The translations under genes were made by a program, and so were the position numbers. A stretch of 64,000 bases of DNA from Actinomycetota bacterium (GTDB lineage: Bacteria; Actinomycetota; Thermoleophilia; Solirubrobacterales; Solirubrobacteraceae). Below the pieces are notes generated by a model. The model was not told where the DNA came from and ran no database searches. It saw nothing but the letters and a program-made list of their open reading frames with translations. The stretch lies in NCBI GenBank assembly GCA_009699865.1, contig WLNJ01000005.1, positions 2,186 through 66,185 on the forward strand, written 5' to 3'. This document shows, piece by piece, positions 2,017 through 24,549 of this stretch; within the stretch, counting starts at the first letter, position 1; each line of letters begins with the position of its first letter.

Positions 2017-2792
2017 CGAGCACCGCCGCGATCCTCTTCTGCCTTGGGGCAAGCCTTGTTGTAATGACGGGGTTGTGGGCGGTCAGCCTCGCATTGGAGG
2101 ACAGTTCCATCGTTGACATCTGGTGGGGCGCCGGGTTCGTCGTCCTGGGATGGACTGCACTCGCCCTGACCGGCCCTCGCGCTGGGAGTCAGTGGCTTGT
2201 GCTGCCAATGGTCACAGTTTGGGGACTACGCCTGACCTGGCATCTGGGCCGTCGCAACATTGGCAAGGGCGAGGACCCCCGTTATGTCGCGATGCGCGCC
2301 AAGGCCGGTGACGCTTGGCCAATCCGCAGCCTGTTTGTCGTGTTCTGGCTCCAAGGGCTGATCATGTGGATCGTCTGCCTGCCAGTACTGGCTGTGGTTG
2401 TCTCACATGAGAACCCGGATTCTTGGCTGGATTTGCTTGGCGTTGCGCTCTTCGCAGTCGGCCTGTTTTTTGAGACGGTCGGTGACTGGCAGCTGGACCG
2501 CTTCAAGCGCGACCCGTTCAGCAAGGGCGAGGTCATGAACCGCGGCCTGTGGCGTTACACCCGCCACCCCAACTACTTCGGTGATGCCTGCGTCTGGTGG
2601 GGCATTGGTCTGATCGCCGCATCAGCCGGTGCTTGGTGGGCCTTGGTCGGTCCGGCGCTGATCAACTTCATGCTCGTTCGGGTCTCCGGTAAGGCACTGC
2701 TTGAGAAGGGGCTGACTAAGCGCCGTCCTGGCTACGACGACTACATCCGTCGCACGAGCGGGTTCATCCCGCTGCCACCAAAGAAGCTCTAG
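2013..2792 (+). CDS. DUF1295 / steroid-5-alpha-reductase-like polytopic membrane protein
   Basis: 259 aa with multiple TM helices and the C-terminal RYTRHPNYFGD motif typical of the DUF1295/ICMT-like superfamily. The TTG start overlaps the upstream stop (TTGA at 2013-2016). Confidence 0.7.
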   Translation: MTSTAAILFCLGASLVVMTGLWAVSLALEDSSIVDIWWGAGFVVLGWTALALTGPRAGSQWLVLPMVTVWGLRLTWHLGRRNIGKGEDPRYVAMRAKAGDAWPIRSLFVVFWLQGLIMWIVCLPVLAVVVSHENPDSWLDLLGVALFAVGLFFETVGDWQLDRFKRDPFSKGEVMNRGLWRYTRHPNYFGDACVWWGIGLIAASAGAWWALVGPALINFMLVRVSGKALLEKGLTKRRPGYDDYIRRTSGFIPLPPKKL

Positions 2793-2796
2793 CCGG

Positions 2797-3417
2797 CTAC
2801 CAGCCGAATAGGCCGGGCTTGGTCCGCGTGCGACTCCACGGCGACCAGAGATTCCAAACGAGTCTGTCCACGCTCCCGACGTTCCTGATGCGTACCCAGA
2901 AGGCAACCGCGCCCCTGTGGAGAGTCACGGTTGAATTAAGCGGCACAGTCCGAGCTGACACGGGCAGGGCCGTGCCAGACGGCTGGTGTGGGGTGATGGA
3001 GTACTCAACCTCCCCGGGGCAAGGATCTGACTTGACAATTCGCAGCACGGAACGCTGAGTACCCGGATTCCGCTTCATGTTTACGGAGAGAGACTGCGGA
3101 ACATAGGTCCAGGAGCTACAGAAGTTGATCAAGTGGAGGGTCGATTCCTTTTGGATGTTGTAGTCGGAGACGGTACGGTCGTCGCCCAAGATCTTGCCTG
3201 CAAAGATCAAGCGGATCTGGCTCGGATGCTGCCCTGACCTGTCCTCAATCTCAGTTTTGACTCTGGATATCTTGTCGCTTGGTTCGACCTCAACGGTCAT
3301 GTGCCGTCCCACCTCATCCCTGACATAAAGCTGCATCCCCATCGCGCTCGCTGGGGCCACAGCGAAGATGACGGACACAAGAGTTGTCGCGAGGAGAAGG
3401 TGCTTGCGCATGGTCAT
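2797..3417 (-). CDS. secreted ubiquitin-homologue fusion protein, paralogue B (signal peptide + Ubl + C-terminal beta-rich domain)
   Basis: The preferred start, ATG at 3417, forms an ATGA overlap with the upstream gene's stop (3414-3417). The sequence runs [25 protein letters not shown], then MGMQLYVR...LIFAGK...[13 protein letters not shown]. Ungapped manual alignment to ubiquitin residues 1-70 gives 43/70 identities. There is no LRLRGG tail. Instead it has a ~115-aa Trp-rich domain ([10 protein letters not shown]...FWVRIRNVG...WSPWS). Confidence 0.8.
3327..3400. repeat. near-identical block shared by the two Ubl genes (copy 1)
   Basis: 3327-3400 aligns without gaps to 3962-4035 with 65/74 identities. 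The first 50 nt are 48/50 identical. The block covers the signal-peptide C-region and the first Ubl codons. Confidence 0.8.
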
Positions 3418-3995
3418 CCCGGAAGCATGGCTGACCATGTGGTCCACTTACCGACCTTGGAACCGATCCGAACCCAGCGTGGCTGGAGCTTGGACTTCCA
3501 GATAACGGTTGTTGAGTAGCTGGCGATCCCGTTGGCGTATGACGCGACTGTTGGTATGGGTTGTGACTCAGATGGCGCCGACAGTGAATTGGAGAACTGG
3601 ACTGTCAAAGCTGCTGCCCCAGCGCGGGTGTCGATCGAGTTGGACCACCACCAGGTAGTTGCAGTGGGAATGTTGACAAGCCAGGTCGCCGCTCTCGCGG
3701 GCTGGCGGGAGGCGGTTGGCCAGGCGGTGAGCGTTACTGGAACGTATGAGGACGGCCCGACGATCACATGTAGCGTGCCCTCCTTCTGGATGTTGTAGTC
3801 CTGAAGCGTGCGACCGTCTTGCAGCTCTGTTCCCTTGTAGAAGAGATGCTGCAATGCCGGGGCGGTGCCATACCTATCGAAGAGCTGCTCCTTGAGGAGT
3901 TCGATGCCGGCATTTGGTTCCACCTCAAGTGTCCAAGTCATGCCGACTTGGGTCTTCACAAAAAGCTGCATCCCCAACGCGCTCGCTGGGGCCAC
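3414..3995 (-). CDS. secreted ubiquitin-homologue fusion protein, paralogue A (Ubl + C-terminal beta-rich domain); start uncertain
   Basis: The ORF track starts at GTG 3995 ([15 protein letters not shown]...). The reading frame continues upstream as LSITKRLLLTAALASVIFA, a clear homologue of the paralogue B signal peptide, but with no ATG/GTG/TTG. The only candidate there is ATC at 4044-4046. The Ubl is 39/70 identical to ubiquitin residues 1-70 ([19 protein letters not shown]). The C-terminal domain is homologous to paralogue B (SSYVPVTL...[10 protein letters not shown]...WTTWS). Confidence 0.75.
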
Positions 3996-4035
3996 TGCGA
4001 AGATGACGGACGCGAGAGCTGCTGTGAGGAGGAGG
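3962..4035. repeat. near-identical block shared by the two Ubl genes (copy 2)
   Basis: Partner of 3327-3400 at a constant offset of 635 nt, with 65/74 identical. Confidence 0.8.
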
Positions 4036-4048
4036 CGCTTGGTGATGC

Positions 4049-5575
4049 TTAGGCGCCGTCGCGAAGTGTTGCGACGCCGCCGATCAGACCAAGGAACAGC
4101 GAGCCGTTGGGACCAATGTGAATCCCGGCGTAGTTGTTATTGAAGTTGAGGGTGCCAACGCCAGAGAGCTTGCTCCAGACCTTCTTGCCAGTTGAGGCAT
4201 CAATTGCCGTCCAGAACCATGCGTCTGAGTGGTTCGTCGTCTTGGTCTTTGTGAAGGCGTAGAGGAGGCCGTTGGTGACGGAGAGCTTGGGGACAACGGT
4301 GGGAGCGCTGTCAACTGTGTTCTTCCACTTGACCTTGCAGGTCTTGCCAGCTTTGGTCACATCAATACGCGTGAAGCCGGGCTTGGTTGTGCCACCTGAG
4401 GCAATGTAGTACGGGTTGACATAGCCGTAGTTGTTCTCAACGATCAGCATTGATGAGGATGCTGTCCCGGCGCCGATTAGTGAGTTCTCGGTGGAGCCAG
4501 CACCCTTTGTGAAGACTGGGACCTTGCAGGTCTGAACGCCGGTTGAGGCCTTGTAGACGACAACGTTCATCGGGTCAGCGTTATCGGTAATCGCGACCAA
4601 GCCGCCAGGCAACATGGTTGGTGTAGTGCCTGAGCCCGCATCAACTTGGCCTGGCTTGGTGAGGCCCGTGTTGCCGTAGTTCGCGCTCCTCCAGACCTGG
4701 TGGACTGTGCCGCCCACGGTGTCGAAGTGGTAGAGCGCCTTGTCACTGACGATGTAGACCCCGTCAGAGGCCACCATGAATGAGTTCTCGATCTCCTCGT
4801 GGAGAGTGATGCTGTGGACTGCGCCGGTGGTGGTATTGACCCACCCGACCTTGCCGTTTGTCTTGCTGACGAACCAGATGTTCCCAGCCCAGTCTGGAAG
4901 AGCCGATGACAGTCGCTCGCCAGCGACAGTGTCGGTCCCGGCGGTAAGGAAGCTGGTTAGGTCATATGTGGCGAGAGTGTCAAAGCTGGTCCCAGCGGTA
5001 TTGAGGGCATAGACGCGGATCTTGCGATCGTTTGTGGCTACTACGGGGTGGTCGTTCTTGTCGAGGAAGAAGTAGCCACCTCCGGTGAAGTCTTGGAAGA
5101 TGTTCGCCGCGGCCGGTCCTTCGCGGGTGGGAAGTGACAGCGAGGCGATCTGGTCAAGCGTGGTGGCATTGAGCATCCGTAGCGTTGGGCTGCCGAAGAT
5201 GGTTGGGCACACGGCAACGAGCCGGCCCTGAGTGTCGAAGGTGATGGAGGCACACAGACCAGGGATTGTCATCCCGAAGTTGTTTGTTGTCTGGACGAGG
5301 TTCTTGCCACGTGGGCCGGCACGCCAGTAGGCGTCTGTCATCCACGAGTCGTTGTGAAGGTTGGAGCGACCATTTGGTGCCATGCTCGGATTCTGGGGCG
5401 GGGCGGTGGCCGTGATCTTCTTGGTGGTCCAAGCCTTACCCGAGAAGTCAGGAAGAGTGGTCGCTACTGAGCCAGTGTCGGGGGCAATTGGGGTGACAGT
5501 TGCTGCTGCTGTTGCGGGCAGGGCAAGTACTCCCAGCAGTGCTGCCACAACGAATCTGTGACGCCGTGTCTCCAT
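4049..5575 (-). CDS. secreted beta-propeller-like protein (PQQ/BamB-like repeats), function unknown
   Basis: 508 aa. N-terminal signal peptide METRRHRFVVAALLGVLALPATAAA. The sequence is rich in Gly, Thr and Asn beta-strand segments, with a repeat signature such as WTAIDASTGKKVWSKL and LYAFTKT. It is the first gene of the low-GC operon. Confidence 0.65.
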   Translation of the reverse strand: METRRHRFVVAALLGVLALPATAAATVTPIAPDTGSVATTLPDFSGKAWTTKKITATAPPQNPSMAPNGRSNLHNDSWMTDAYWRAGPRGKNLVQTTNNFGMTIPGLCASITFDTQGRLVAVCPTIFGSPTLRMLNATTLDQIASLSLPTREGPAAANIFQDFTGGGYFFLDKNDHPVVATNDRKIRVYALNTAGTSFDTLATYDLTSFLTAGTDTVAGERLSSALPDWAGNIWFVSKTNGKVGWVNTTTGAVHSITLHEEIENSFMVASDGVYIVSDKALYHFDTVGGTVHQVWRSANYGNTGLTKPGQVDAGSGTTPTMLPGGLVAITDNADPMNVVVYKASTGVQTCKVPVFTKGAGSTENSLIGAGTASSSMLIVENNYGYVNPYYIASGGTTKPGFTRIDVTKAGKTCKVKWKNTVDSAPTVVPKLSVTNGLLYAFTKTKTTNHSDAWFWTAIDASTGKKVWSKLSGVGTLNFNNNYAGIHIGPNGSLFLGLIGGVATLRDGA

Positions 5576-5665
5576 CCCTTGCCAGACGCTACCGCATCAG
5601 ACCCCATTAGGGAACCGGTTGGTGTTGGCGCGACCGCCTTTGGTCGAGGGCGTACGCTCTTTGGG

Positions 5666-6721
5666 ATGGAAACTCGACGCGGACCAAAGGCCCTCTATCG
5701 GGCGTCAGGAGCAGATCTCCCATTTGACGATCCCCTGCGGTCGCATGCGACCGGGATGGAGGGGTACTTCTGGCGCATCACCCAGCCTGAGACTGGGCGG
5801 GTGGTTGTCGCACTGATTGGAGTCAATGATGATCGGGCCGGCGGGCACTGGGCCACGGTCGGGCTGGCAGGGCACCCAGGCGGGTTTCTGAAAGCTGCTG
5901 CGCTGGACGGGGCCACAGCGGACATGGAGGGCTTGGGAGCAAGAACAACCGACGGTCGCTTTGTTGCCAACGGACATTCAGTGCGCGTTGACCTTGGTGA
6001 TGCGGCCAAGCTCGAGCTTGAGGTTGATGATCAGGTCCTCTGGCCACGGCGCCGTTTGGGCGCCTCATCTTGGTTTCACTCCATTCCAGCGCTCAACCAG
6101 TATTGGCACCCACATCTGGTAGACGGGGTGGCCCGAGGGCATGCGGTCATCAACGGAGAAGAGTGGGATCTTGACGGCGCGCGGGTTTACGCCGAGAAGA
6201 ATTGGGGGCGCGGCGGCTTCCCGGCTGAATGGTGGTGGGGGCAAGCCCAGGGCTTTGAGGACGCTGACGCCTGTGTCTGTTTCGCTGGGGGTCGTGTCGA
6301 GACAGGGCCGCTTGGCGTTGAGGTCACCGCACTTGTTGTGCGGGCCGGGGGCAAGTTCCTGCGCCTTGGTGACCCCCTGCTCTCACCCGTGAAGGCTGAG
6401 GTCACGGATGAGGAGTGGCTCTTAACCGGGCGATCGCCTCGCTACCGCGTTGAGGTCCATGGGACTGCCCAACTTGGCGCCGCTCATGTCCTTCCAGTAC
6501 CCCTGCCCGAGGAGCGTCGCAACATCGCGGCAGCGCTCGAACACCTCGGCGCAACCATGACCGTGACCGTCAAGGAGCGCGGTAAGGGAGTTGTCTGGCG
6601 CGGGCATTCCGAGCTCGCTGGCCTTGAGCATGGTGGCCGTGACCGGGCGGAGGCTGAGGCGGGGCGGCGCGGTGGAACGCCCGATGGGTCGGCTGGTCCA
6701 GTTAAAAACTTCACCGACTGA
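5666..6721 (+). CDS. tocopherol-cyclase-family (VTE1-like) protein
   Basis: MEGYFWRITQPE resembles the EGWYF(K/R)V motif of tocopherol cyclases. YAEKNWGRGGFPAEWWWGQAQGF resembles their EKNWGxxFPxxWxWxQ motif. I chose ATG 5666 because the longer ORF start (5558) overlaps the divergent gene. Confidence 0.6.
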   Translation: METRRGPKALYRASGADLPFDDPLRSHATGMEGYFWRITQPETGRVVVALIGVNDDRAGGHWATVGLAGHPGGFLKAAALDGATADMEGLGARTTDGRFVANGHSVRVDLGDAAKLELEVDDQVLWPRRRLGASSWFHSIPALNQYWHPHLVDGVARGHAVINGEEWDLDGARVYAEKNWGRGGFPAEWWWGQAQGFEDADACVCFAGGRVETGPLGVEVTALVVRAGGKFLRLGDPLLSPVKAEVTDEEWLLTGRSPRYRVEVHGTAQLGAAHVLPVPLPEERRNIAAALEHLGATMTVTVKERGKGVVWRGHSELAGLEHGGRDRAEAEAGRRGGTPDGSAGPVKNFTD

Positions 6722-21439: not shown

Positions 21440-23014
21440 GTGGCGTTTCTTCGCGTTTCTTCACGGTCGTCTGCGATGTTGTCAACCGCAGGACAATCCA
21501 CCTACCGTCTGCTGCTGCGACTGAAGGGCACTCCAGGGATTGTTCTGGGCGCGCTAGTCCTTTCGTCCCTGAGCGTCACCGTGCAAACGGGGATTGGTTT
21601 TGACCCGTCGTACTGGCTCATGTGGGGCGCTGAGATCACATCGGGCAAGCTCGTCACAGCCCACGCTTGGACAAGCTGGAAGCCCCTGCCAATGCCGTTC
21701 ATGGTCGTGTTCAGTCTGTTTGGCAGCGCAGCCCCGTCGCTGTGGATGATTGTCGCCCGCGCGGGCACCCTCGTTGCGACCGCATTGGCATTCCGGATCA
21801 CCTGGCGTCTGATTCTCGACATGTTGCCAGCGGACCCCAAGCAGCTGAGGGCGCAAGTCCCAGCGCTGCTTGGTGGTTGTGTGGCCGCCGCAGGGTTACT
21901 CAGGTTGCTGTTGGGCTGGTCAATGACCGGGTACTCAGAAGGGTTGGCAATCGCGCTGATGCTCGCTGGGGTGGAATGCATGCTCAAGGGGCGCCACAAG
22001 CCAGCACTGTTCTTTTACCTTGCTGCCTGCCTTGGCCGCCCAGAACCACTTTTGGCAGTGATGGCCTACAGCGTCTGGCTCTGGCGCCGGGAACCCGGAC
22101 TGCGCAAGTGGATGCTGGGCGGACCGCTCTTGGTGTTGGCCACATGGCTGATCCCCGAGTGGATTGGCTCAGGGGATCCATTCCGCGCTGGGAAGCTTGG
22201 CAAAGTTGAACACCTGCACCAGACTCAACCGGGTGACAGTAACCCCCTGATCGTGATCAGCGGCGCTTTCACCGCGCTTCCGGCGGCGACAGCAGCCTTC
22301 CTGCCAGCGAGTTTGGTGGCCGTCATCTGGGCAGCCAAGCGGGGCGACCGCAAGCCGCTTCTGCTCAGCGCGATCGGCATTGCGTGGGCGGTCATGGTGG
22401 CGCTCCAAGTCGCTTTCGCGGCATCGCAAACGACACACCCAGGTGTTCTGAGGTACATGATTCCCGCGCAAGCGTTCCTGCTGCTCGTGATCGGCGTTGG
22501 AGCAGGGTCAGGCACCTTCCTGATTGGCAGGGGACTCGAGCGGATTGGGCTGGACCCGAGGGTATCCGCAGGTGCTCTAGCGACCATTGGGGTTGTCGGG
22601 CTGACGGCTTCCATGTCGGTCTCAATCCTTCCCAAGTACGAGGTCATGCAGGATGGCCAAAGGGTTGTCTGGCGCGCGACTAGACAGCTGGACAGGGCAA
22701 TCTCAAGGGCAGGCGGCCCGGGCACAGTCCGACGCTGCCTCCCAATCGCGAACTATCCAAGATGGGATGCGACCATCGCTTGGAAAGTTGGGGTTACTCT
22801 GCGAGCCTTCGGCCGCCGGGGATCACCTCAGGACCCCCTCTCCCGGGCAGACTTCGGGCGGGGGACTACATTCCGACTTACCGGGCGCCTCGCGTCCGGT
22901 AAGAACACTCCCTACAGCCCAGCAGCTGTTGCGCCTGGGGCGACACTTGCAAGCATGGCCGCGCCGTGGTACATCTTTCAGCGCTGTTCGACTAAACGAC
23001 ACAAGAAGAAGTAG
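21440..23014 (+). CDS. large polytopic membrane protein, GT-C-fold glycosyltransferase-like (tandem paralogue 1)
   Basis: 524 aa, about 11-12 TM helices plus a ~130-aa C-terminal soluble domain. It is collinear with the next gene through shared blocks: SWKPLPMPF, YSEGLAIAL/YAEGLTLTF, GRPEPL, WLIPEWIGSGDPFRAG, IAWKVG, FRLTG. It has a basic tail. Confidence 0.6.
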   Translation: MAFLRVSSRSSAMLSTAGQSTYRLLLRLKGTPGIVLGALVLSSLSVTVQTGIGFDPSYWLMWGAEITSGKLVTAHAWTSWKPLPMPFMVVFSLFGSAAPSLWMIVARAGTLVATALAFRITWRLILDMLPADPKQLRAQVPALLGGCVAAAGLLRLLLGWSMTGYSEGLAIALMLAGVECMLKGRHKPALFFYLAACLGRPEPLLAVMAYSVWLWRREPGLRKWMLGGPLLVLATWLIPEWIGSGDPFRAGKLGKVEHLHQTQPGDSNPLIVISGAFTALPAATAAFLPASLVAVIWAAKRGDRKPLLLSAIGIAWAVMVALQVAFAASQTTHPGVLRYMIPAQAFLLLVIGVGAGSGTFLIGRGLERIGLDPRVSAGALATIGVVGLTASMSVSILPKYEVMQDGQRVVWRATRQLDRAISRAGGPGTVRRCLPIANYPRWDATIAWKVGVTLRAFGRRGSPQDPLSRADFGRGTTFRLTGRLASGKNTPYSPAAVAPGATLASMAAPWYIFQRCSTKRHKKK

Positions 23015-23019
23015 ACGAC

Positions 23020-24549
23020 GTGACCGTGACTACCCCCCGAAAGACCATTAGCTGGACCCGACTTCTGCGCGGCGAGCTTGGGCTGCTTGCCGGGTCAACG
23101 GTTGTCGCTGCGATAACCCTCCTGTGGCCATTCAGCGTCAGGTCAGACGCCGTGTATTGGATGCTCTGGGGGCGCGAGCTCACCCAGTTCACGCTAGACA
23201 CCGGCAGTGGCTGGACCAGCTGGAAGCCACTCCCTATTCCCTTCACGACCGTCTACAGCTTGTTCGGGGACAGTGCTGCGTCCGCCCTATGGATGCTGAC
23301 CTCCCGGGCAGCAACATTCTTCGCAGCGGTGCTGGTATTCAGGCTCGTCCGTCGGCTTACAGACCAAGCCCTCAAGCCAATTGGGATCGTCTCGATCCTC
23401 CCTGGGGTGATGGGTGGCCTATTGGCTGGTCTCTGGACCCTCCGTGTCCTTGTTGGGTTCACGGCTCTTGGTTACGCGGAGGGCCTCACATTGACGTTTG
23501 TTCTGCTCGCCGTTGAGCGGGCCCTTGAGGGGAAACACAAGTTTGCTCTGCTCTTTGGTCTTGCGGCCTGCCTCAGCCGGCCGGAGCCACTTGCGTTGAT
23601 GATGATCTACGGACTCTGGCTGTGGTTCAAGCAGCCCGCGCTACGCAAGTGGCTGGTTGCCGGACCGGTTTTCGTTGTCGGAGCGTGGCTGATCCCGGAT
23701 TGGATTGGCTCTGGGGACCCACTGCGTGCACGCTATCTCGGGGGTGTCCACCGCATCGACATGCACTATCCGGGTGACGGCAAGCCATTGAGGATGATCA
23801 AGTTTGCGTTCACCACGCTTCCCACGATGGCCTTCTACGCACTGCCGTTGGGCGTCATCGCCGCCTTGTGGCAGGCGAAGAGAAAGAGTTTCGAGCCAGT
23901 CGCACTACTTGGGCTCGCGCTCACATGGGTAGGTCTCGTGGCGTTCGAAACCGCTCAGGGCACCAATGGACTGCCTCGCTATATGTTCGGAGCTCAAGCG
24001 TGCCTGATCATTGTCAGTGGGTTTGGCGTTGCCGTGTTGGTTGGACTTGTTGCGAAGGCTCTTAACAAGGCGGGAATGCCACTTGAGGGTGCGTTAGCAA
24101 TTCCGGTCTTGACAGCGATGCTGGCAACCGGGGTCTTCGCCCAGAAAGTTCTCTACCCGAGGCTCGCGGAGGTCAAATCCGCCCAAGCCAAGTTCGCTGA
24201 GGCGGATGCCACGCTGACGGATGCAATCAACGCAGCAGGTGGTCCCAAGAAGGTGATTGCGTGCGGCCCCGTTTCGCGATTTGCGCTGTTTGACCCGACC
24301 ATCGCTTGGAAGCTGGGGGAGACATCGTCAGTCCTCTCATACGGCGGAGGCCCTGACGATCCCAACCTTGATGTCCAGTTCAAATTCGGCAGCACCTTCA
24401 GGCTGTATGTCCCAATCGGGCGACGGCCTCTGGATGCCCATATCCGCTCGCGGATAGCCCCAGGAGCGAGACGGGTTGCTGAAGCAGGCGACTGGGTTGT
24501 CTACCAGCGCTGCCTTAAGTGGCGCAAGCGGGGCGCGGCTAAGAAGTAA
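23020..24549 (+). CDS. large polytopic membrane protein, GT-C-fold glycosyltransferase-like (tandem paralogue 2)
   Basis: 509 aa and a paralogue of 21440-23014 (SWKPLPIPF, SRPEPL, WLIPDWIGSGDPLRA, IAWKLG, FRLY). Only 5 nt separate the two genes. Confidence 0.6.
   Translation: MTVTTPRKTISWTRLLRGELGLLAGSTVVAAITLLWPFSVRSDAVYWMLWGRELTQFTLDTGSGWTSWKPLPIPFTTVYSLFGDSAASALWMLTSRAATFFAAVLVFRLVRRLTDQALKPIGIVSILPGVMGGLLAGLWTLRVLVGFTALGYAEGLTLTFVLLAVERALEGKHKFALLFGLAACLSRPEPLALMMIYGLWLWFKQPALRKWLVAGPVFVVGAWLIPDWIGSGDPLRARYLGGVHRIDMHYPGDGKPLRMIKFAFTTLPTMAFYALPLGVIAALWQAKRKSFEPVALLGLALTWVGLVAFETAQGTNGLPRYMFGAQACLIIVSGFGVAVLVGLVAKALNKAGMPLEGALAIPVLTAMLATGVFAQKVLYPRLAEVKSAQAKFAEADATLTDAINAAGGPKKVIACGPVSRFALFDPTIAWKLGETSSVLSYGGGPDDPNLDVQFKFGSTFRLYVPIGRRPLDAHIRSRIAPGARRVAEAGDWVVYQRCLKWRKRGAAKK

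Follow-up and report, generated by a model that had tools for sequence, protein, structure and literature searches.

Tandem genes for putatively exported ubiquitin-domain proteins at a variable locus of a freshwater actinobacterium

The window, that is the whole 64 kb stretch of DNA analysed here (67 ORFs of at least 80 aa), was found to carry two adjacent genes, designated A and B, each encoding a protein with a ubiquitin (Ub) domain. In the explanation that is considered probable, A and B are tandem paralogues of one gene type, built of a signal peptide, a eukaryote-derived Ub domain and a C-terminal beta-sandwich, and are co-transcribed and translationally coupled with an upstream gene for a beta-propeller-like protein (Table 1). 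Both products would be exported, and the Ub fold would work extracellularly, through non-covalent contacts. This account draws on the observed gene structure, fold, homology, synteny and evolutionary rates.

Organisation of the locus

Copy A is the one with the LIFAGK motif, which an earlier, sequence-only reading of this DNA had named paralogue B. Its product matches P0001 exactly (206 aa; NCBI 'unannotated protein [freshwater metagenome]'). The start codon of A, ATG 3415-3417, overlaps the stop codon of B as ATGA, and the putative start of B follows the stop codon of the propeller gene as TAA-GC-ATC; translational coupling is proposed because of these two junctions, and the propeller gene is presumed to be the first gene of the operon. 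A scan of positions 2400-6000 for promoters and terminators gave nothing informative. Both frames are intact and the GC3 of A and B (0.70-0.73) is like that of the neighbouring genes. Eukaryotic contamination or a chimeric assembly was rejected in view of this GC3 and of synteny that is kept in at least six independent assemblies.

Table 1 Features of the locus in window coordinates.
Feature	Position	Strand	Comment
Paralogue A	2797..3417	minus	downstream copy, 206 aa; stop TAG 2797-2799
A signal peptide	3343-3417	minus	25 residues, then MG before Ub domain
A Ub domain	3121-3336	minus	
A divergent C-terminal domain	2800-3120	minus	
Paralogue B	3414..4046	minus	upstream copy, 210 codons counted from ATC; stop TGA 3414-3416
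B signal peptide	3978-4046	minus	23 residues, then LG before Ub domain
B Ub domain	3756-3971	minus	
B C-terminal beta-sandwich (CTD)	3417-3755	minus	
Stop-start junction propeller/B, TAA-GC-ATC	4044..4051	minus	ATC 2 nt after propeller stop
Signal-peptide core segment of B, direct-repeat copy 1	3972..4022	minus	near-identical DNA to A segment
Signal-peptide core segment of A, direct-repeat copy 2	3337..3387	minus	near-identical DNA to B segment
Beta-propeller-like gene, 508 aa, secreted (predicted)	4049..5575	minus	ORF; N-terminal signal peptide METRRHRFVVAALLGVLALPATAAA

The propeller-like protein gave a weak PQQ_2/BamB-type Pfam match (E=2e-5), below the curated cutoff. Its gene stands directly upstream of a ubiquitin-like (Ubl) gene in the related loci L001-L008 and L010, with 70-96% identity, and its omega is 0.057 when compared with L004 (MAG GCA_026392255.1). 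The array that follows differs among genomes in which the propellers are 90-96% identical: the window has B and A, L004 has A only, L007 has a di-Ubl gene and L010 has three genes. The locus is thus a fast-evolving, hypervariable array, whose copy number in close relatives ranges from one to three. The A orthologue of L004 is truncated at its C-terminus and carries G35W, P38A, I44T and H68Y, at positions where A of the window retains the canonical residues, and this L004 copy may be decaying.

When A and B are aligned, codons 11-30 agree at 54 of 60 nt, against 30-73% in other segments of the same alignment. Since pS between A and B is 0.14 in a 17-codon stretch of the signal peptide and saturated (0.855) in the Ub domains, the near-identical signal-peptide segments point to gene conversion. 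In L004 the upstream region of B is joined to the body of A, as would result if recombination between the two signal-peptide repeat copies had deleted the DNA between them.

Predicted export and domain structure

The N-terminus of A is a classic n-h-c signal peptide with an ASA end, and B has the same signal-peptide sequence, in the same reading frame, ahead of its called start. Gene callers begin B at Met1 of the Ub domain (185 aa) and the ORF list begins it at GTG 3995; from either start the product of B would be cytoplasmic. Upstream of GTG 3995 there is no in-frame ATG, GTG or TTG, and the ATC at 4046-4044 is the only candidate start for the signal peptide. We infer that translation of B begins at this ATC: the TAA-GC-ATC junction and an intact downstream signal-peptide frame also occur in L004 and L007, and the homologous position is TTG in L002, L003 and L010 and ATG in A. 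Programmed frameshifting out of the propeller ORF to reach the frame of B was rejected as unnecessary because homologues start with TTG or ATG at this same position.

An in-frame signal peptide of the same kind is present at all orthologous loci, and export of A and B by a Sec-type signal peptide seems likely. The junctions ASA-MG in A and ASA-LG in B directly precede Met1 of the Ub domain, and on inspection of the sequences cleavage after ASA or after A-x-G would satisfy the -3/-1 rule in both, given the ATC start in the case of B. The mature Ub domain would begin at the signal-peptidase site or within two residues of it. As ubiquitin is a fast-folding protein, a Tat signal was considered too; neither A nor B has a twin-arginine motif, the RRS(I/F) of L002 and L003 is only weakly Tat-like, and the idea was left aside.

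The Ub domains were recognised by the Pfam ubiquitin model PF00240 with E=3e-20 (72.1 bits) for A and E=1e-17 (64.1 bits) for B, the gathering cutoff being 25.4 bits, while NCBIfam holds no dedicated model and gave sub-threshold Rad23 matches only, by way of the Ub domain. The AF2 model of B has a mean pLDDT of 77.9; its Ub part superposes on ubiquitins of the PDB with an rmsd of 0.8-1.0 Å over 71 residues (Foldseek probability 1.00), and ubiquitins were the only Foldseek matches of the full-length model. Of 14 hydrophobic core positions, four are changed in A and five in B, every change being from one hydrophobic residue to another.

Residue mapping agreed with the sequence-only reading on several points, namely that K63 and the segment 58-68 are retained in both paralogues, that LIFAGK is retained in one of them (A), and that neither keeps L8 (E in A, Q in B). 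On the surface, A keeps I44, F45, G47, K48 and H68, B has lost I44 and K48 and also has R42 and A46 replaced, and the I36/L71/L73 patch is absent from both.

After the Ub fold each protein continues into a C-terminal domain (CTD) of about 107-113 aa. The CTD alone was used as query for homologues, since searches with full-length A were swamped by eukaryotic polyubiquitins. The CTD profile retrieved 81 proteins, in almost all of which just 0-2 residues follow the domain, and its partners in other proteins are Big_13 Ig repeats, RCC1 propellers and BspA-type LRRs. A hydrophobicity heuristic detected signal peptides in 27 of 46 Met-initiated matches of at least 300 aa. The CTD of B belongs to this family, since a profile made from non-Ubl sequences alone matches it with E=1e-28; it is 58-67% identical to its orthologues and keeps all family-invariant residues. 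The CTD of A is divergent: an HMM built without A-type sequences gave no match, and hhalign against the B-type CTD gave a collinear alignment that is weak (P=0.06), so that homology is not statistically established. A BLASTP alignment of A with gene 1 of L010 reaches residue 165.

The AF2 model of the CTD (pLDDT 87.6) is a beta-sandwich, and its nearest PDB structures are FN3 domains, at a level that is not significant (E=0.08, TM 0.43). No sequence relative was found in the PDB and no model in Pfam or NCBIfam, and the Pfam and NCBIfam models of the T9SS CTD, PEP-CTERM, LPXTG and SLH did not match A or B. The CTD appears to be an undescribed FN3-like C-terminal domain of exported actinobacterial-type proteins, and in A and B its most likely use would be to fix the protein to the cell envelope, to sort it there, or to bind a partner.

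The sequence-only reading had taken the Ubl domains to be probably non-conjugatable, and on the present data this can be put more strongly, as predicted signal peptides are added to the missing Gly-Gly (GG) and the missing enzymes. The Ub fold passes from TLHLI or TLHVI directly into the CTD, as that reading had noted, and A and B have no C-terminal or internal GG, only single glycines of the G47-K48 type. A Pfam scan of the 67 ORFs (most at E<=1e-5) bore out the reported absence of conjugation genes from the 64 kb, as it detected neither CBASS components nor any ThiF/E1, UQ_con/E2, JAB/MPN, OTU or USP domain, and PADLOC gave no matches among the six genes of the locus. The proposal that A and B are not conjugatable is thus supported by the lack of GG, by the lack of an E1, E2 or DUB gene in the window and by a predicted location in the wrong compartment; export from the ATP-containing cytoplasm would by itself exclude conjugation. 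With no enzyme gene found in the 64 kb, a cytoplasmic system for conjugation or defence, comparable to Bil, Bub, CBASS-Cap2 or ISG15 and with its enzymes encoded elsewhere, is scarcely credible: it would fit the Met1 start given to B by gene callers, if the signal peptides are ignored, and the internal LRLRGG still present in relatives L009 and L010 (gene 2), but the signal peptides are conserved across the family, and A and B are eukaryotic-type in sequence, while Bil and Bub Ubls are structurally related yet divergent in sequence.

Divergence and origin of the pair

An ungapped count over Ub positions 1-70 gave 34 identities between A and B, 43 between A and Ub and 39 between B and Ub, exactly the numbers of the sequence-only reading, and BLASTP gave 43/70 for A-Ub, 39/71 for B-Ub and 40/85 for A-B. 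That reading had explained the pattern either by constraint toward the eukaryotic sequence or by two separate acquisitions, and neither is supported here. The identity matrix revealed the same relation for every member of this small Solirubrobacterales/Actinomycetes family; its consensus agrees with Ub at 65 of 70 positions, and some members reach 61-66/70. The 34 identities between A and B consist of 30 shared ancestral Ub residues and four shared derived ones. Because the pattern is family-wide and the consensus is so close to Ub, it has the signature of an ancestor that was essentially eukaryotic Ub and of lineages that diverged from it independently, in a star-like manner; with a near-invariant donor at the centre of the star, any descendant that has diverged will resemble the donor more than it resembles its siblings. 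The answer to the identity puzzle is in this sense ordinary, and instructive.

The dN/dS between A and B could not be computed because their synonymous sites are saturated (pS 0.855), and the A orthologue in L004 was used instead. Omega was 0.62 for the Ub domain, a value from one pair and few sites, whereas the CTD gave 0.22 and the flanking genes 0.04-0.06. When the Ub-domain changes were polarised against Ub, about twice as many fell on the L004 branch. The Ubl domain is 49-51% identical to those of L002 and L003, compared with 56-82% for the neighbouring genes. By these comparisons the Ub domain of the window lineage is evolving fast.

The tandem arrangement, the junction motif SS..YVP, the 54/60 nt signal-peptide segment and the conserved synteny together indicate, from sequence comparison, a single acquisition of eukaryotic Ub; an ancestor would have acquired it once, and duplication would have been followed by rapid, independent divergence of the copies. 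Separate acquisition of ubiquitin by each paralogue, for which the 34/70 identity and the saturated synonymous sites might speak, is very improbable, as the two genes are immediate neighbours whose stop and start codons overlap, they share the signal peptide and a two-residue linker before Met1, they have the same junction TLH[LV]I..SS..YVP and collinear C-terminal ends (WVRI...VG...W..WS), and one to three such genes occupy the same syntenic site in relatives. The other explanation offered earlier, that the Ub domains are held near the eukaryotic sequence by mimicry so as to bind Ub-binding proteins of a grazer or host, is judged unlikely for this pair. It gains from the surface residues kept by A and from a wider bacterial class of signal-peptide-bearing Ub proteins, described below, whose strong conservation (median 64/70 to Ub) goes with omega of 0.04-0.11 in related pairs, with a saturated median pS of 0.87 against a median pN of 0.11 over all pairs, and with a Ub GC3 that tracks host GC from 0.20 to 0.96. 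The copies of the window are, however, the most diverged members of that class; residue mapping runs against a constraint toward the eukaryotic surface (L8 is lost in both copies and I44 and K48 in B, where R42 and A46 are replaced too, and the I36/L71/L73 patch is gone), the omega of 0.62 in the A lineage is against it as well, and star-like divergence fully explains the identities.

Decay of one or both genes into relics without function, B having lost its start codon and A being under relaxed selection, is distinctly unlikely. The missing ATG, GTG or TTG before the B signal peptide, the omega of the A Ub domain, the truncated and substituted L004 orthologue and the absence of B from L004 would all agree with it. 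It is opposed by the intact frames with GC3 like that of the neighbours, by the conserved CTD of B, by ATC and an intact signal-peptide frame that persist in three lineages at the position where homologues have TTG or ATG, and by the canonical residues that L004 has lost and A of the window still has.

The wider class and comparison with known systems

A genome scan retrieved 338 bacterial Ub-encoding loci. Among the best 80 of these 338, the signal peptide directly abuts Met1 in 65 of 84 Ub domains, GG is mostly lost, and most of these loci have the layout of signal peptide, Ub without GG, and a variable tail. In L029 and L031 the Ub leads into a T9SS sorting domain, and the tail of L025, which matches NEAT-LRR and porin family models, is read here as an SLH-like region. 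Constraint toward the eukaryotic sequence is real in this wider class, to judge from its identities and omega values. Cultured isolates in it include Conexibacter, Saccharibacillus, Paenibacillus, Dyella, Rhodoferax and Aquiluna; the protein of this class in Conexibacter sp. CPCC 205762 has the same junction, ASALG|MQIF. The pair in the window appears to consist of diverged members of this widespread and apparently undescribed bacterial 'signal peptide + ubiquitin' class; no description of the class or of this actinobacterial family was found in the open-access literature, including two beta-grasp surveys of the Aravind group.

It is tentatively suggested, at somewhat less than even confidence, that the pair is a fast-evolving offshoot of a class spread over at least 10 phyla, in which a Sec signal peptide is set on Met1 of a near-native Ub that is cut before Gly-Gly, continues into surface-anchoring or extracellular modules (the T9SS sorting domain, SLH-like or transmembrane tails, the new CTD) and is under strong purifying selection. 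If this is true, many free-living bacteria, most of them aquatic, expose ubiquitin on their surface or release it there, and it could engage the Ub-binding machinery of eukaryotic grazers or hosts or serve as a weapon of the kind described below for Bacteroides fragilis. To judge from the scan, the design is widespread among bacterial phyla; extracellular, non-conjugated ubiquitin would then be a general bacterial tool, and the use of the conserved surface of ubiquitin outside the eukaryotic cytoplasm would become testable.

With the Ubls of Bil, Bub and CBASS Cap2/Cap3 operons and with ThiS/MoaD, A and B share the beta-grasp fold, but those proteins are Gly-terminated, encoded beside E1/E2/JAB genes and cytoplasmic, none of which is true of A and B. 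Eukaryotic Ub and its fusions (polyubiquitin, UBA52, RPS27A) are closer, in the PF00240 domain, the 56-61% identity, the fold and the arrangement of an N-terminal Ub with another polypeptide; A and B differ in having no LRLRGG, hence no release by a DUB, in being exported (as predicted) and not cytosolic, and in the partial or complete replacement of the I44 and I36 surface patches. The secreted Ub extension proteins of cyst nematodes (Globodera) also combine signal peptide, Ub and C-terminal extension and are used outside the producer (PMC5705921). Their 12-aa extension is removed by cleavage inside the plant cell, and their target is the host cytoplasm (PMC5705921), whereas the extension of A and B is a folded domain with no GG cleavage site.

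The only characterised relative is BfUbb of Bacteroides fragilis, to which BoUbb of B. ovatus was added in 2024; both are secreted ubiquitin homologues (PMC3352274, PMC5705921, PMC11467351). BfUbb has an SPI signal that annotation had overlooked, is cleaved exactly at Ub Met1 and has no terminal Gly (PMC5705921); it is antibacterial, acting through a periplasmic PPIase after SusCD import (PMC11467351). A and B resemble BfUbb and BoUbb as eukaryote-derived Ub in bacteria, with an SPI signal peptide that sets the mature start at or near Met1 (here predicted) and was overlooked by gene callers, with no terminal Gly-Gly and hence no capacity for conjugation, and with a site of action outside the cytoplasm of the producer (again predicted here). 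By analogy with BfUbb, the biological role that we favour is interaction or antagonism between organisms.

More specifically, A and B might be BfUbb-like secreted antagonists of related bacteria, with the CTD as a receptor-binding or tethering module; this is a real possibility, if a doubtful one. It is suggested by the shared layout of an SPI signal abutting Met1 with no GG (PMC5705921, PMC11467351) and by the fast evolution, copy-number variation, deletion and truncation among near-identical genomes, which are typical of conflict genes. Against it, A and B are each identical to BfUbb at just 30 of 70 positions, fewer than to Ub (the BfUbb sequence was checked against PDB 8hm3_A), no immunity gene or target is evident, and BfUbb is imported to the periplasm by a Bacteroides SusCD transporter, while the host of A and B belongs to Thermoleophilia, which are presumably monoderm. 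The toxin activity, PPIase target and SusCD import of BfUbb are not obviously transferable. BfUbb is moreover a stand-alone protein of 76 aa from a gut Bacteroides, whereas A and B each have about 110 further residues, a predicted beta-sandwich, after the Ub fold and lie in a tandem array coupled to a secreted propeller gene. The design known from BfUbb, a signal peptide set on Ub Met1 and no Gly-Gly, is thus now seen in a freshwater actinobacterium, joined to a new C-terminal domain and a variable gene array.

Two ubiquitin-like genes with predicted signal peptides

Both ORFs were present where the sequence-only reading had placed them, namely A, the downstream gene, which that reading had labelled paralogue B, and B, the upstream one. 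BLASTP gave identities of 43/70 (61%) between A and ubiquitin (Ub), 39/71 (55%) between B and Ub and 40/85 (47%) between A and B, and the ungapped count over Ub positions 1-70 (43, 39 and 34, respectively) reproduced exactly the earlier manual figures; each copy is indeed closer to Ub than to its neighbour. The residues singled out by eye were also seen in the alignment to Ub: K63 and segment 58-68 are kept in both products, LIFAGK is found only in A, and L8 is replaced by E in A and by Q in B. The Ub surface patches proposed for mapping are eroded: the I44 patch reads E-I-H-I in A and Q-F-H-I in B, the I36 patch is gone from both, and K48 is lost from B. Hydrophobic core positions are substituted solely by other hydrophobic residues, and hence the fold is probably kept.

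A signal peptide, not noticed by the earlier reader, is predicted on both products. By sequence inspection, that of A has a positive n-region, a hydrophobic core and an AxA site abutting Ub Met1. The frame of B extends 5' of the start in the ORF list to encode its predicted signal peptide, and this upstream stretch contains no ATG, GTG or TTG. The homologous codon is ATG in A and TTG in L002, L003 and L010, three related loci in which it overlaps the stop of the upstream secreted propeller-like gene or lies 2 nt past it. As ATC is the only candidate, its arrangement is kept in three lineages and its homologues are TTG or ATG, B likely initiates at this non-canonical codon, probably through termination-reinitiation coupled to the propeller stop. 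The ATG of A overlaps the TGA of B as ATGA. Because gene callers set the starts of B and of most homologues to Ub Met1 or "MAM", the signal peptide is lacking from these annotations; that of BfUbb was likewise overlooked by annotation (PMC5705921).

Coordinates of the ubiquitin-like genes, their elements and related arrays
Feature	Position	Strand	Remarks
A	2797-3417	-	ORF; Pfam ubiquitin model, E=3e-20
B	3414-4046	-	ORF; Pfam ubiquitin model, E=1e-17
Candidate ATC start of B	4046-4044	-	2 nt past the TAA of the propeller gene; sole candidate
TAA-GC-ATC junction, propeller stop to B	4044-4051	-	also in L004 and L007, signal-peptide frame intact
Signal-peptide-coding repeat	3337-3387 (A) and 3972-4022 (B)	-	~90% DNA identity
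Array of the window			B+A
Array of L004 (MAG GCA_026392255.1)			one gene: upstream region of B and body of A, C-terminally truncated
Array of L007	769-1605		one gene, two Ub domains in tandem
Array of L010	2233-4742		three consecutive signal-peptide-Ubl genes; the second (2876-3493) with internal LRLRGG

In both A and B the Ub fold continues directly into a C-terminal domain (CTD), and no GG occurs at either junction, as had been read. A Pfam scan of all 67 ORFs of at least 80 aa in the window found no ThiF/E1, UQ_con/E2, JAB/MPN, OTU or USP domain and no CBASS component, in agreement with the earlier search by eye, and PADLOC gave no match at the Ubl locus; the Pfam matches obtained were to housekeeping genes (FtsZ, sigma-70, release factor, HisD, methylmalonyl-CoA mutase, ETF, thiolases and others). 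The view that A and B are non-conjugatable is correct as far as can be read from the sequence, and is reinforced by their predicted export. In L009 and in the second gene of L010 a full internal LRLRGG precedes the CTD (RGG-P and RGG-S, respectively), from which it follows that the ancestral fusion probably took in a whole ubiquitin. The Gly-Pro junction of L009 would be resistant to deubiquitinases.

A variable array and its C-terminal domain

In every assembly with flanking sequence available, the Ubl gene or genes lie directly 3' of the same gene for a 480-508-aa secreted propeller-like protein, with a convergent DUF1295 gene downstream. The relatives are annotated as Solirubrobacterales (Thermoleophilia, Actinomycetota) or as "Actinomycetes bacterium" MAGs from lakes. 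The Ubl site differs among genomes with propellers 90-96% identical (see table); the third gene of L010 encodes a 410-aa product with an Ig-like C-terminal region. Between A and B, 54 of 60 nt are identical in the signal-peptide-coding segments (pS 0.14 over a 17-codon core), whereas synonymous sites of the Ub domains have reached saturation (pS 0.855), which indicates gene conversion between these segments. L004 could have lost the body of B through recombination at the same repeat, and the deletion appears to have been mediated by it.

A heliorhodopsin gene lies a few genes from the Ubl locus in L002 (10625-11404) and L003 (5413-6174); none is among the Pfam matches of the window. Two adjacent large ORFs of the window (+ strand, 21440-23014, 524 aa, and 23020-24549, 509 aa) had no Pfam match at E<=1e-3.

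Searches with the CTD only disclosed a very small full-length family, with one A-type and six B-type relatives. A CTD profile run against 1.84 billion representatives matched 81 proteins (E<=1e-3). In almost all of them 0-2 residues separate the end of the domain from the C-terminus, and N-terminal to it lie Big_13 Ig-like repeats, RCC1 propellers or BspA-type LRRs. A simple hydrophobicity heuristic assigned signal peptides to 27 of the 46 Met-initiated matches of at least 300 aa. This strictly terminal position on diverse exported cargo suggests that the CTD may serve as a sorting or envelope-attachment module. The CTD of B matched a profile built from non-Ubl proteins only (E=1e-28); that of A is far more diverged, with no HMM match when A-type sequences were left out and a collinear hhalign alignment (P=0.06). 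The CTD has no sequence relative in Pfam, NCBIfam or the PDB. Its AF2 model (pLDDT 87.6) is a beta-sandwich, the nearest solved folds being FN3 domains of cytokine receptors, at a non-significant level (E=0.08, TM 0.43). In the matched proteins P0131-P0207 the domain spans ~110 aa, has the conserved motif D.R.GA..LTVQ.S...PSD..P.PT..SYA.GI....P.WVRVGN..GKW..W and is apparently undescribed.

Divergence of the copies from ubiquitin

The greater closeness of each copy to Ub had been explained either by constraint toward the eukaryotic sequence, that is mimicry of a ubiquitin-binding surface, or by two separate acquisitions. The dN/dS (omega) comparison of A with its L004 orthologue gave 0.62 in the Ub domain and 0.22 in the CTD, against 0.04-0.06 in four flanking genes whose proteins are 95% identical; between A and B themselves synonymous sites are saturated. 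When the 21 Ub-domain differences between A and L004 were polarised with Ub as the outgroup, about 10 fell on the L004 branch (among them G35W, P38A, I44T, F45Y and H68Y) and about 5 on that of the window, so that part of the relaxation belongs to the L004 copy, which is possibly decaying; even so, change on the window branch outpaces that of the neighbouring genes several-fold. Relative to L002 and L003, identity is 49-51% in the Ub domain and 58-60% in the CTD, at or below the least conserved neighbour (range 56-82%). Selection for staying close to the eukaryotic sequence would give the opposite of what A and B show.

The identity matrix accounts for the pattern, since every diverged family member is closer to Ub than to its siblings, three members are still identical to eukaryotic Ub at 61-66 of 70 positions and the family consensus reaches 65/70. 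Judged from these sequences, the ancestor was essentially eukaryotic Ub, from which the lineages drifted off independently; with a near-invariant donor at the centre of the star, such a pattern is expected. A, B and Ub agree at 30 of the 70 positions; at 13 others the Ub residue is kept in A only, and at 9 in B only. Derived changes shared by A and B number only four (I3L, T9V, K33R and V70I), of which T9V and V70I are absent from A's own orthologue. Separate acquisitions are very unlikely, as A and B have signal peptide, linker and junction motif in common, lie in tandem and occupy a syntenic site. Neither they nor mimicry, which the eroded patches and the omega of 0.62 also oppose, are needed for A and B.

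The wider class and known exported ubiquitin

The A/B locus pointed to a much larger class, which merits systematic study. When one genome from each GTDB species was scanned for the pattern [DS][GD][RKG][TS][LV][SQ][DY]YNI, 338 stretches were confirmed to encode Ub, in bacterial assemblies and in a few archaeal ones. The counts for the best 80 loci are indicative only, since these were ranked by similarity to B and positions 52-61 are biased by the pattern. In 65 of their 84 Ub domains a hydrophobic signal peptide, its -3 and -1 residues small, abuts Met1; the median identity to Ub is 64/70, and conservation drops past residue 70, GG being left in ~8%. Hosts belong to Pseudomonadota, Verrucomicrobiota, Bacteroidota, Bacillota, Actinomycetota, Myxococcota, Planctomycetota, Lentisphaerota and cyanobacteria, and include isolates with large contigs. 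In all, hundreds of bacterial genomes across many phyla have a signal peptide joined exactly to Met1 of a near-native Ub without GG; the cultured isolates with this layout include Conexibacter sp. CPCC 205762, Saccharibacillus sacchari DSM 19268, Paenibacillus faecis, Dyella acidiphila, Rhodoferax lacus and Ca. Aquiluna IMCC13023.

Nothing follows Ub in Dyella; L029 and L031 carry a T9SS type A sorting domain (38-44 bits, cutoff 23), and the Saccharibacillus tail, matching NEAT-LRR and porin family models, may be read as SLH-like. Other tails comprise up to 2000 further residues, or a hydrophobic helix, putatively transmembrane, with an Arg-rich tail. Related pairs have omega of 0.04-0.11, synonymous sites taken over all pairs are saturated at a pN of 0.11, and Ub-domain GC3 follows host GC from 0.20 to 0.96. 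These genes are resident, ameliorated and strongly constrained rather than contamination. Two loci are probably eukaryotic genes in bacterial assemblies, as contamination or chimeras: a Ub-RPS27A-like fusion on a 530-bp contig of Paracoccus marinus NBRC 100637 (L083), and a polyubiquitin-like sequence at the end of a 181-kb alphaproteobacterial MAG contig (L086).

No description of the actinobacterial A/B family or of a broad signal peptide-Ub class was found in the open-access literature. The only characterised case of exported bacterial ubiquitin is that of BfUbb and BoUbb (PMC5705921, PMC11467351). BfUbb is secreted, with a 27-aa SPI signal cleaved exactly at Ub Met1 and no terminal Gly. 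It is an intraspecies toxin, taken up via a SusCD transporter, whose target is a periplasmic PPIase (PMC5705921, PMC11467351). A and B have the same defining layout, a signal peptide abutting Ub Met1 and no terminal Gly, but differ in host, in sequence (30/70 to BfUbb), in their folded CTD and in forming an array coupled to the propeller gene. Their most likely role is extracellular, as a non-covalent binding or antagonism module that the CTD would tether outside the cell. A and B are a new architectural variant of exported bacterial ubiquitin of the BfUbb kind, carried in a hypervariable array.
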